A DNA stretch of 23,739 nucleotides from a virus (IMGVR_UViG_638275429_000001:1-23739), one strand, 5' to 3'; shown: positions 2,404 through 16,296, numbered from the stretch's first letter. A program made the numbers and translations. The notes: generated from the sequence alone by a model not told the origin.

Positions 2404-2670
2404 TCAATATTGAACTTCAGCTTTCATTTTTTCGATCATTTCATCGATAACGTTCGGGATATTTGCACCGAAAAGGTTTGCTTCATGAACGATCCCGCTT
2501 GCGCACAATACGCCCATATCTCTACGGCTTGCTTGACCAATGCGTAAGCGTTCAAGCGGCCCAGATACGTTTTCAGTCAGTTCGTCAGCGTGTTGCTGAT
2601 CACCCATGAAGCGAATGTTGATGCGACAAACGCGTTCGAGTGCATTGTTTAGTTCTTCATACAGGGTCAT
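2404..2670 (-). CDS. Hypothetical 88-aa early protein
   Basis: Strong SD GGAGG 5 nt before ATG, directly behind an early promoter. Confidence 0.75.
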   Translation of the reverse strand: MTLYEELNNALERVCRINIRFMGDQQHADELTENVSGPLERLRIGQASRRDMGVLCASGIVHEANLFGANIPNVIDEMIEKMKAEVQY

Positions 2671-2696
2671 ATGACCTCCACAGTTAGTTCATGCCT

Positions 2697-2726
2697 ATAA
2701 TAACATGAAAGAACATTATAGTAAAC
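2697..2726 (-). promoter_or_regulatory. T4-type early promoter
   Basis: GTTTAC-18-TATTAT with TG extension; -10 flanked by TTCATG/CATGAA inverted repeat. Confidence 0.8.
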
Positions 2727-2747
2727 AGTCATTTTGAATATTTTTGG

Positions 2748-3006
2748 ATTAACCAGATGAATTCTGGTTAATAGGGGACACTCGTTTGAATGTATCATTG
2801 AACAACTATCTGGACTCCCAGGTTTGGCTCTGCCAAACTAGCATTTTATCCTTTAAGGCCTAATAGATTATATAACCTAAGGGATAAATTCGAGCAAAGC
2901 TCGAAGGCGAAGCCAATATGTTGTTATACAAAAATGCCGGACTCGAGGTCCGGCCAATATGCAACTGTTGAACTAGTTAACGAGCGAGCTCGTCGGCCGA
3001 GGGCCG
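2748..3006. other. Non-coding cluster of short inverted repeats (candidate structured RNA or DNA origin)
   Basis: Stems read directly at 2748-2772, 2822-2838, 2845-2888, 2889-2905, 2906-2914, 2936-2954, 2980-2993 and 2994-3006; GCCAATATG direct repeat at 2912 and 2953; no ORF of 60 aa or more. Confidence 0.6.
2930..2954 (-). terminator. Putative intrinsic terminator
   Basis: GCCGGAC-ctcga-GTCCGGC followed by ATTTTTG on the minus strand. Confidence 0.55.
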
Positions 3007-3068
3007 TTCTTTCTTGTTCAAGTTTCTTATTCTCAGTCAACTTGTAAAATCAACGGACCGGGTACCGG

Positions 3069-3076
3069 TATTTATA
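3069..3076 (-). promoter_or_regulatory. T4 late (gp55-type) promoter consensus
   Basis: Exact TATAAATA on the minus strand, overlapping the stop codon of ORF 3072-3338 and pointing into the hairpin cluster. Confidence 0.5.
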
Positions 3077-3338
3077 CTCCCGGTCGGTCATCCCGGAAAT
3101 CGAAGAACATGGCTTCAGATGCAGAAATCGAATCGAACAGATCGCCGTTGATATAGATGTCATGCCAACCGCTGAAGATCCCACCCTTAAGTGGCTTAAC
3201 ATCGAACTCGACCATGCCGAATTTCTTGGCAATACGCCAGTTGTTGTTGCTGCCGTCGCTGTTATTGGTAGCCCATTCCTTCTCGCCTTGATCGATGAAC
3301 GCACGCTTTGCTTCTACGGATTTGAATTTTGCTTTCAT
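3072..3338 (-). CDS. Hypothetical 88-aa protein, GoF/ComC-alpha-like family
   Basis: FKSVEAKRAFI...N.RIAKKFGMVEF.V...ISASEAMFFDF resembles recalled T4 GoF (FKNKQAQENFI...NGIYARRLGMEPFKI...LSTNEAGFFDEV); SD AGGAG. Confidence 0.8.
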   Translation of the reverse strand: MKAKFKSVEAKRAFIDQGEKEWATNNSDGSNNNWRIAKKFGMVEFDVKPLKGGIFSGWHDIYINGDLFDSISASEAMFFDFRDDRPGV

Positions 3339-3339
3339 T

Positions 3340-3801
3340 TTATTCTCCTACAACGTTAAACCAGGTTTCAAATTCTTCGCGAGAAATAGTAACACCATAG
3401 CTTTTTCCGCGTTCGAGGTAATAGGTGTCATTCTCGACCTTGACATCGACTTCACAACCATAATAGTTGTCAAGGAAATCTATGTTGCAATGTTGGCCGC
3501 GAATACGATTACAGAAGTGGTAGTAATGGTGACCACTTTTGATTTTGGCTTTCATTTCCATAAGCTCGATGTCGAAGAATTTCTCTTCACTTTCGATAAT
3601 GCACAAGTTATCGTCATCATGATCGGTAAGATTCAGGTGGCTCAAAGCATCGACCAGATAAAAACGACCATCATCCTGGTCTTTGACAAGATAAACGTTG
3701 CGATAGTCGATCAGATACATGATGACAGCATTGATACTGCGGAAACGTTCTACAAAGACTTCTCGCGACACATCAGGCTTAAATTGGACACTGTATTTCA
3801 T
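3340..3801 (-). CDS. Hypothetical 153-aa protein with two tandem GoF-like domains
   Basis: Domain 1 MKYSVQFK...ESEEKFFDIE; domain 2 MKAKIKS...SREEFETWFNVV; SD GGAG. Confidence 0.75.
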   Translation of the reverse strand: MKYSVQFKPDVSREVFVERFRSINAVIMYLIDYRNVYLVKDQDDGRFYLVDALSHLNLTDHDDDNLCIIESEEKFFDIELMEMKAKIKSGHHYYHFCNRIRGQHCNIDFLDNYYGCEVDVKVENDTYYLERGKSYGVTISREEFETWFNVVGE

Positions 3802-4148: not shown

Positions 4149-4188
4149 TTGATGGATTCATTCTATACATTTCGATGGTGGTGTAAAC
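4149..4188 (-). promoter_or_regulatory. Early promoter of terminator-promoter cassette
   Basis: A/T-rich UP tract, GTTTAC-17-TAGAAT, CATCAA 5 nt downstream of the -10. Confidence 0.85.
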
Positions 4189-4225
4189 TGTTTTGTGAAA
4201 AAGATTTCAATAAAAACAACAAAGG
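4182..4225. repeat. Direct repeat copy 1 (terminator tail + UP element + -35)
   Basis: tgtaaactgttttgtgaaaaagatttcaataaaaacaacaaagg, identical to 10006-10048 except for one A. Confidence 0.9.
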
Positions 4226-4242
4226 CCTCCGAAGAGGCCTTT
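4211..4242 (-). terminator. Intrinsic terminator after gene 39+60
   Basis: AAAGGCCTC-TTCG-GAGGCCTTT then GTTGTTTTT; C(UUCG)G tetraloop typical of T4 terminators. Confidence 0.9.
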
Positions 4243-9971: not shown

Positions 9972-10012
9972 TTGATGGGACAATTTTATACCGATAAACG
10001 GACAATGTAAAC
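9972..10012 (-). promoter_or_regulatory. Early promoter of terminator-promoter cassette
   Basis: GTTTAC-18-TAAAAT; CATCAA 5 nt downstream; same UP tract as the 4149-4188 promoter. Confidence 0.85.
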
Positions 10013-10048
10013 TGTTTTGTGAAAAGATTTCAATAAAAACAACAAAGG
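10006..10048. repeat. Direct repeat copy 2 (terminator tail + UP element + -35)
   Basis: Near-identical to 4182-4225. Confidence 0.9.
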
Positions 10049-10061
10049 GCCCGAAGGCCCT
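10035..10061 (-). terminator. Intrinsic terminator
   Basis: AGGGCC-TTCG-GGCCCT then TTGTTGTTTTT. Confidence 0.88.
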
Positions 10062-16196: not shown

Positions 16197-16230
16197 AACT
16201 TACTCCGTTGTTGTCGTTTAACTTGTGGCT

Positions 16231-16260
16231 ATCTTAACACGATATCTTTTGATTGTAAAC
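16231..16260 (-). promoter_or_regulatory. Early promoter for denV operon
   Basis: GTTTAC-18-TAAGAT with TG extension, leader CAAGTTAAAC. Confidence 0.85.
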
Positions 16261-16270
16261 AGCTTTTCAA

Positions 16271-16296
16271 ACAAAAAGACCCTCCGAAGAGGGTCT
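16271..16296 (-). terminator. Intrinsic terminator after primase
   Basis: AGACCCTC-TTCG-GAGGGTCT then TTTTG. Confidence 0.9.

Follow-up and report, generated by a model that had tools for sequence, protein, structure and literature searches.

A non-coding island between genes 60plus39 and rIIA of Aeromonas phage 44RR2.8t joins a copy of repeatA to a candidate late-promoter unit

The island described here lies in the T4-like Aeromonas phage 44RR2.8t (44RR), between the topoisomerase gene 60plus39 and rIIA. The window analysed is a stretch of 23,739 nucleotides, bases 1-23739 of the 173,591-base genome, and its coordinates agree with the published 44RR2.8t ones. The island is a composite of four parts: an early promoter, copy 1 of the dispersed repeat known as repeatA, the terminator of a goF-like gene and a late-promoter unit. 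The late-promoter unit (2955-3076) was previously unremarked, and neither it nor its twin at copy 6 of the repeat carries an annotation. Judged on sequence comparison, it is an evenly balanced question whether this unit is a small late gene, which would start near position 3063, stop at a terminator at 2936-2954 and give an RNA of ~134 nt with a polypurine 5' part. The early promoter and the terminators were predicted in 2006 and the six-copy repeatA is annotated in GenBank; new here are the breakdown of the copy 1 island into its parts, the paired late modules at copies 1 and 6, the late promoter lying inside a terminator and the conservation of the island relative to the flanking genes.

The gene-free gap spans 2671-3071 (401 nt) and is flanked by two minus-strand ORFs. 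A sequence-only reading of this DNA had taken 2748-3085 as a single hairpin-packed entity, a candidate late non-coding RNA or replication origin. That it has no substantial ORF is borne out, and the region is structured and under selection. All eight stems and the motifs listed in that reading are present where it placed them. It overlooked a ninth stem (3057-3069), the early promoter (2690-2740) and the dispersed-repeat nature of 2810-2915, and the view of the island as one entity does not hold: copy 1 of the annotated six-copy repeat occupies the middle, the left end is taken up by an early promoter that was already known, and two of the stems appear among published terminator predictions. 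The flanking genes, the late-promoter unit and the terminator that follows it are as follows, with stems labelled hp.

3072-3338, minus strand: ORF004c, 88 codons, goF-like protein (phrog_2980)
3069-3076, minus strand: TATAAATA, exact gp55-type late promoter motif, overlapping the TAA stop of ORF004c
3057-3069, minus strand: hp8, 5 bp ACCGG-TAC-CCGGT, covering -6 to +7 of the late promoter, with a U-rich tract after it
2955-3076, minus strand: late module, made up of TATAAATA, hp8 across the start site, the polypurine leader and the GC hairpins hp6 and hp7
3007-3045, minus strand: polypurine leader, 74% purine on the RNA-like strand, in the top 0.2-0.9% of genome windows
2994-3006: hp7, 5 bp CGGCC-GAG-GGCCG
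2980-2993 (within 2980-3006): hp6, ACGAGC..GCTCGT, 5-6 bp
2929-3063, minus strand: predicted late non-coding RNA of ~134 nt, placed from the promoter and terminator positions
2926-2954 (stem 2936-2954), minus strand: hp5, intrinsic terminator GCCGGAC-CTCGA-GTCCGGC followed by AUUUUUGUAU
2404-2670, minus strand: ORF003c, 88 codons

Nothing else at the locus is as well conserved as the non-coding DNA. Over the 1.2 kb surrounding the island the sequence is 97% identical to that of Aeromonas phage 31. Between 44RR and the diverged phage AS4 the two flanking proteins are 44% and 58% identical and the third codon positions of their genes 35% and 41%, whereas most segments of the island show 62-85% nucleotide identity. 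The promoter with its hairpin reaches 85%, repeatA 77% and the polypurine leader 74%, and the lowest value is 51%, in the indel-rich stretch of hp6 and hp7. The leaders of the two phages differ by 13 substitutions, which keep or increase the purine fraction, from 0.74 to 0.79.

The stems are maintained by compensatory change. We aligned the syntenic gap from 11 phages, five of the genus Biquartavirus and six of Tulanevirus, an examination of relatives for covariation that the sequence-only reading had proposed. In the nine stems 93% of pair cells are paired, compared with 26-48% when the partners are slid, and seven pairs have changed on both sides; the copy 1 module is carried by two diverged lineages only, so each compensatory change in it is a single event. 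In AS4 and B614 hp8 has changed from ACCGG/CCGGT to ACCAG/CTGGT and hp7 reads CGGGC/GCCCG. Three variants of the hp5 stem are connected by double changes. When 2748-3085 was folded, the minus strand as RNA gave -108 kcal/mol compared with -80 kcal/mol for dinucleotide shuffles (z = -4.8), and the plus strand as DNA gave z = -7.7; in both cases none of 100 shuffles folded as well.

The sequence-only reading had called the motif at 3069-3076 a perfect late promoter directed into the hairpin cluster. The motif is exact, and its rarity in the genome, the published sites and its conservation suggest that it is probably a real late promoter. There are eight exact copies of TATAAATA in the 173.6-kb genome, about the number expected from base composition, and six of the other seven are published late-promoter predictions (five in the head-gene block and one before repeatA copy 6); the only other exact copy outside the published predictions is at 70735 on the minus strand. 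The late-promoter consensus in 44RR, drawn from 17 published sites, is [T/A]ATAAATA. The motif is kept in AS4 and B614, which are ~75% identical; in these phages the stop codon is displaced ~15 nt upstream, which frees the motif from coding constraint. In phage 31 the annotation includes gene 55, which encodes the late sigma factor gp55, beside repeat copy 2.

In T4 the motif occupies -13 to -6, and by this rule the RNA would start at about 3063. The 5' arm of hp8 lies upstream of this predicted start and would therefore form only in read-through RNA from ORF004c; we read hp8 as a candidate terminator with a built-in late promoter. The RNA itself would probably end at hp5. The stem of hp5 has seven pairs, six of them GC, and the terminator at 2936-2954(-) was predicted by TransTerm with a confidence of 96 (Nolan 2006, supplement). 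In Tulanevirus hp5 begins 8-9 nt past the stop of the goF-like gene, and hp5 is therefore the terminator of that gene. The earlier claim of a stem at 2936-2954 with a minus-strand U-tract thus corresponds to a conserved minus-strand terminator, and the RNA of ~130 nt that it was said to end was a fair prediction. A T-rich tail noted on the plus strand after the 2994-3006 stem has another origin, being simply the complement of the polypurine leader.

The predicted RNA region does not appear to encode a peptide, as no reading frame in it survives the indels between the two lineages. The two candidate frames, a 38-codon TTG frame on the minus strand (3040-2924) and a 37-codon ATG frame on the plus strand (2934-3047), are both broken in AS4 and B614 by indels of 1 nt and 9-10 nt. 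No Rfam family was found at the gathering threshold, the best sub-threshold match being SorX at 22.4 bits where 46.6 are required, and a search for tRNA and tmRNA genes found none.

Downstream of the late module lies the repeat itself, with the following anatomy.

2810-2915, plus strand (GenBank annotates the other strand): repeatA copy 1, a repeat_region in phage 31, with six copies in the 44RR genome
2822-2838: hp1, 7 bp GTTTGGC-TCT-GCCAAAC, with the T-rich core arm after it; copy 1 orthologues show two compensatory double changes
2845-2888: AT-rich palindromic core, 13 pairs with one bulge and one G-T, inverted TTATCCTTT arms and centre TAATAGATTATATAAC
2889-2905, minus strand: hp3, 7 bp TTCGAGC-AAA-GCTCGAA with a U-rich tract after it on the minus strand
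2906-2914: hp4, GGC-GAA-GCC

RepeatA is present in six dispersed copies with a unit of ~110 nt, the other five being at 30046, 76094 (inverted), 93216, 115779 and 150156. In phage 31 all six are labelled "31repeatA, similar to 44RRrepeatA". Every copy is intergenic and lies directly downstream of a gene-end terminator, at the junctions ORF004c/ORF003c, ORF048c/55, 2/3, wac/13, 25/ORF177c and 35/36. The identical six junctions are occupied in AS4/B614 and in phages 25, 60AhydR15PP, Aes012 and IME13. The gap between ORF003c and ORF004c bears the repeat in phages 31, avDM1, AS4, B614, 25, phiAS4, 60AhydR15PP, Aes012 and AhMtk13a, and in IME13 it occurs in the same region beside rIIA, where the small ORFs are not annotated.

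We compared 23 copies from four phages. The core follows the pattern TTATCCTTTA.GGC.TAATAGAT....TAAC..AAAGGATAA, derived from alignments of 6 and of 23 copies and matched here at 2846-2887. It shows no variation inside a genus among the 23 copies, and the five or six differences between genera are common to all six copies of a genome, which therefore points to concerted evolution. The TTATCCTTT arms never covary and therefore look like a target of sequence recognition and not like a selected stem. The cores rank in the 0.1-2% most AT-rich windows of a genome with 44% GC. GC hairpins bracket the core, one on the left (hp1) and two on the right (hp3 and hp4). In these hairpins the sequence is free between copies and the Watson-Crick compensation always perfect. 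The hp1 stem has further variants in other copies, and hp4 is GAGGC-AAA-GCCTC in the copy 1 orthologues and has many other sequences elsewhere, forming a hairpin every time. The loops are unconstrained (AAA, GAA, TTT, TTC, AA, AGG, CAT, CT and others) and are sometimes strand-flipped.

The orientation of repeatA relative to the flanking genes is split three to three, and this split and the strand flips of the loops therefore argue for a role of repeatA at the level of DNA. TransTerm predicted a terminator at 2891-2903(-), which is hp3 (Nolan 2006, supplement). A T-rich arm follows a hairpin on each side of the core, an arrangement that can be read as two inward-facing terminators. From these patterns the core is most likely a DNA site for a protein, shielded from transcription. 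As a separate observation, hp3 and hp4 face the gene in the copies before late genes (36, 13 and 3), and hp1 faces it before early or middle ones (ORF003c, 55 and ORF177c), a perfect three-to-three split with a chance probability of ~0.1.

Several other readings of the repeat were set aside. The sequence-only reading had drawn attention to GAA loops and to a GCGAAGC mini-hairpin (2907-2913), which are present in this copy; the orthologues have the AAA loop given above and other copies have TTC, AA, CT and so on, so the loops are not conserved over the 23 copies and were rejected as a functional feature. It had also pointed to GCCAATATG after two hairpins, at 2912 and 2953, and to the palindrome AACTAGTT at 2971-2978. 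Both occurrences of the former and the latter are exact, but the occurrence at 2912 and the palindrome are not kept in relatives. A sigma-70 or MotA promoter inside the core, considered on account of the loop TATAAT, was rejected: no suitable -35 accompanies this sequence, copy 1 has a different spacing, and the published early and middle promoters all lie elsewhere. A promoter scan of 2810-2915 found none, and none of the 36 published early promoters lies within any repeatA copy. DnaA-box and IHF readings of TTATCCTTT were partial matches by eye only (TTATCC fits six of nine DnaA-box positions) and were dropped. In IMG/VR the core pattern was found only in phage 25, 60AhydR15PP and four short fragments, and the literature searched holds no discussion of the function of repeatA.

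The late module has a paralogue at repeatA copy 6, where the same order of parts precedes the repeat just after the gene 25 terminator. The promoter hairpin there has the same arrangement as hp8 and its own covariation. The local alignment of the two modules scores 29, compared with 14.4 +/- 2.2 for shuffles, a score reached by none of 2000 shuffles and by four of 3000 random genome windows. For purine content the leaders of copies 1 and 6 rank among the highest 0.03-0.9% of genome windows. The module at copy 6 is present in both genera, the Tulanevirus form having CATAAATA, while the module at the copy 1 locus is found in Biquartavirus only. The stem of hp6 matches that of hp3 as found in Tulanevirus copy 6, the loops differing slightly. 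The twin would make an RNA of ~105 nt, running from about 115918 to about 115815. A covariance model built from nine modules scores copies 1 and 6 at 94.7 and 82.2 bits, but both were in the training alignment and these hits follow by construction. The search is informative for the absence of a third copy and is not independent support for paralogy; it found no third late module in the genome, the next match having E = 0.7.

The copy 6 leader also holds ATGAGATTAAAAGA, close to the T4 uvsY start ATGAGATTAGAAGA. Homology to the uvsY start is a weak proposal, since the orthologues in AS4 and phage 25 have no ATG there. Pfam UvsY has no match in the genome at E values up to 10, and a YqeY-like gene stands at the uvsY position; these features concern 115212-115724 and 115860-115935.

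In the reading we favour, ORF004c would end in the small terminator hairpin at 3057-3069, which holds the late promoter. Late in infection gp55-RNA polymerase would start at ~3063 and make the ~134-nt non-coding RNA, with its polypurine 5' part and two GC hairpins, and the RNA would halt at the conserved terminator at 2936-2954. RepeatA copy 1 would come next, with its AT-rich core shielded from RNA polymerase on both sides by hairpins and T-tracts and available as a DNA site for a protein, and the early promoter at 2690-2740 would then restart transcription of ORF003c-ORF002c-rIIA.

A number of observations weigh against this small late gene and the protected site beyond it. The search by hidden Markov model (HMM) in 2006 gave 17 late promoters without that at 3069, and its authors report late promoters only before late-gene orthologues. 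Folded by itself, the predicted RNA shows no significant gain in stability over shuffles (z = -1.9). The similarity of copies 1 and 6 is in part that of an extended late-promoter consensus, as TATAAATACC occurs also at 99572. Tulanevirus is without the late module at the copy 1 locus, and repeatA therefore does not need the module. No protein is known to bind the repeatA core. Phage avDM1 is without the left core arm (CATTTTATCCTTTAAG) of copy 1 at columns 121-137 of the alignment, which would be either a natural deletion or an assembly error, and copy 1 may on this account be dispensable; its hp3 loop is also flipped, with TTT for AAA.

The same parts could be arranged as a transcript-primed (R-loop) origin, in which the late purine-rich RNA would stay on the template and prime DNA synthesis at or near the AT-rich core, the six copies being origins; we think this rather unlikely. 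Purine-rich RNA forms stable hybrids, a promoter and then a polypurine leader point at the core in copies 1 and 6, and the cores have the extreme AT content and the GC hairpins described above. Two or three terminators, however, separate the promoter from the core. At copy 1 the core lies ~175 nt downstream of the late promoter and behind two predicted terminators, hp5 and hp3; at copy 6 hp3 stands in the way, and in four of the six copies no promoter is directed inward. There is no MotA-type middle promoter near any copy among the nine published 44RR middle promoters, and no Mot box was seen by eye in the island. Six dispersed copies can be set beside the at least five origins of T4, and a late promoter may be needed at T4 oriC (PMC3016281), but the T4 origins have no common sequence motif and oriA lies near soc and not between gene 39 and rIIA (PMC3016281). 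Only copy 6 matches a T4 origin, its junction at gene 25 being that of the annotated T4 oriF, and the proposal that the six sites are equivalents of the T4 origins was rejected. Late transcription usually comes after replication and not before it, and one core arm is missing from copy 1 in avDM1. A more specific form of the idea, and one we hold to be more doubtful still, is that both late-module polypurine RNAs would end exactly at the insulated core edge and act as RNase-H-resistant primers or R-loop formers, with repeatA providing sequence-defined sites of replication or clamp loading, a subset of which late transcription would activate. We know of no T4-type phage with a shared origin motif or a late-promoter-dependent origin.

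It is also possible, though we doubt it, that TATAAATA is a plain late promoter with a structured leader, which would add late expression of ORF003c, ORF002c and rIIA by read-through, the hairpins attenuating or stabilising the mRNA and no discrete RNA having a role of its own. T4-type phages often give early genes an extra late promoter, this one is on the same strand as the three genes and upstream of them, and the copy 6 paralogue has been published as a late promoter before the uvsY-region genes. Against this, two high-confidence TransTerm terminators stand between the promoter and ORF003c, the early promoter already serves ORF003c-ORF002c-rIIA, and the leader is far better conserved than the genes served and keeps its purine bias, neither of which a mere spacer needs. 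We find it very improbable that the island is functionless debris, a recombination scar or a decaying mobile element (MITE-like or PeSL-like) in a non-essential region. The late module does look as if part of the copy 6 flank had been duplicated and placed between a stop codon and the terminator belonging to it, the loop flips and indels show hairpin-mediated rearrangement, avDM1 has its deletion, and PeSL cassettes promote shuffling in RB49 and phi1 (PMC2839356). However, conservation in the island is far above that at neutral sites of the flanking genes, compensatory changes maintain its stems and the same six junctions are occupied in two genera. There is no sign of recent mobility, the core occurring only in these phages and the few IMG/VR fragments.

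The remaining features of the island lie to the left of the repeat.

2787-2801: TGAATGTATCATTGA, a 15-nt block with an AATG-TAT-CATT palindrome, from alignments of both genera
2748-2772: hp0, 10 bp, next to the early promoter on its upstream side; retained in Biquartavirus, where it shows one double change
2690-2740, minus strand: early sigma-70-type promoter, TTTACT-17-TATTAT at 2725-2697 with an AT-rich upstream element, from a consensus scan

The early promoter, which serves ORF003c-ORF002c-rIIA, has been published as Pe:2740 with 25.7 bits (Nolan 2006, supplement). The Watson-Crick pairing of hp0 is not retained in Tulanevirus. The block TGAATGTATCATTGA is almost invariant across both genera (Tulanevirus has one C/T difference) in surroundings that vary; it sits ~50 nt upstream of the early promoter and fits no promoter consensus.

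The neighbouring genes ORF002c (2125-2388), ORF004c and ORF005c (3340-3801) all match the goF-like family phrog_2980 and make up a tandem family of small early paralogues. An extra copy of the 462-nt ORF005c is present in phages L9-6, avDM5 and avDM2. For the phage 25 homologue of the goF-like ORF004c the annotation gives a fragment of 96 nt (1296-1391), compared with 249 nt in phiAS4 and others, and this homologue is probably a frameshifted gene. PeSL-like cassettes, in which a terminator hairpin is followed by an early promoter, occur at 4153-4239, 9976-10060 and 16224-16295 (repeat families D2, D14 and D16); they rest on published coordinates of early promoters (Pe) and terminators and are separate from repeatA.

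The closest known counterparts of the repeat are the GenBank features 44RRrepeatA and 31repeatA_1..6, which share the core, flanking hairpins and locus of 2810-2915. Those annotations span 60-70 nt, give no function and omit the late module and the copy 6 twin. PeSL cassettes of RB49 and phi1 are likewise short intergenic repeats that join stem-loop terminators and promoters in T4-type genomes, and the stem at 2748-2772 with Pe:2740 has the PeSL layout. PeSL-like sequences in 44RR2.8t are mentioned by the authors of the PeSL study (PMC2839356). A genome contains ~50 PeSLs, which have a sigma-70 promoter and are concentrated in plastic regions. RepeatA, in contrast, is limited to six fixed copies, half of which lie among conserved late genes, and its core contains no sigma-70 promoter.

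T4 oriF (uvsY) and oriG (34) resemble the island in having a promoter upstream of an easily melted AT-rich stretch, and copy 6 is at the oriF junction, downstream of gene 25. The T4 origins have MotA-dependent middle promoters, no terminator before the unwinding element and no shared repeat (PMC3016281). The island differs from them in its late-type promoter, in the intervening terminators and in the four copies without a promoter. The primary origin of T7 consists of phage promoters and then an AT-rich region into which the transcript runs. Here too a phage-specific promoter lies ~100 nt upstream of an AT-rich segment, but the predicted transcript ends short of that segment. Bacterial REP/BIME elements, especially the IHF-binding type, are host elements found in hundreds of copies. 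They are intergenic, as is repeatA, and both occur after gene ends in either orientation, with GC hairpins around an AT-rich centre, which in REP/BIME binds protein; by eye there is no IHF or DnaA consensus in the repeatA core.

T4 serves as the model both for phage replication from multiple origins and for the coupling of late transcription to replication, and the small RNAs of T4-type phages have barely been explored. The six-site family is fixed in two genera, and two of its sites carry a dedicated late promoter, polypurine leader and terminator. The island thus raises the testable questions of whether T4-type phages make late regulatory or priming RNAs and whether they have sequence-defined, origin-like sites. 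If neither should be true, the island would still be a clear case of stacked terminators shielding a DNA site from transcription.

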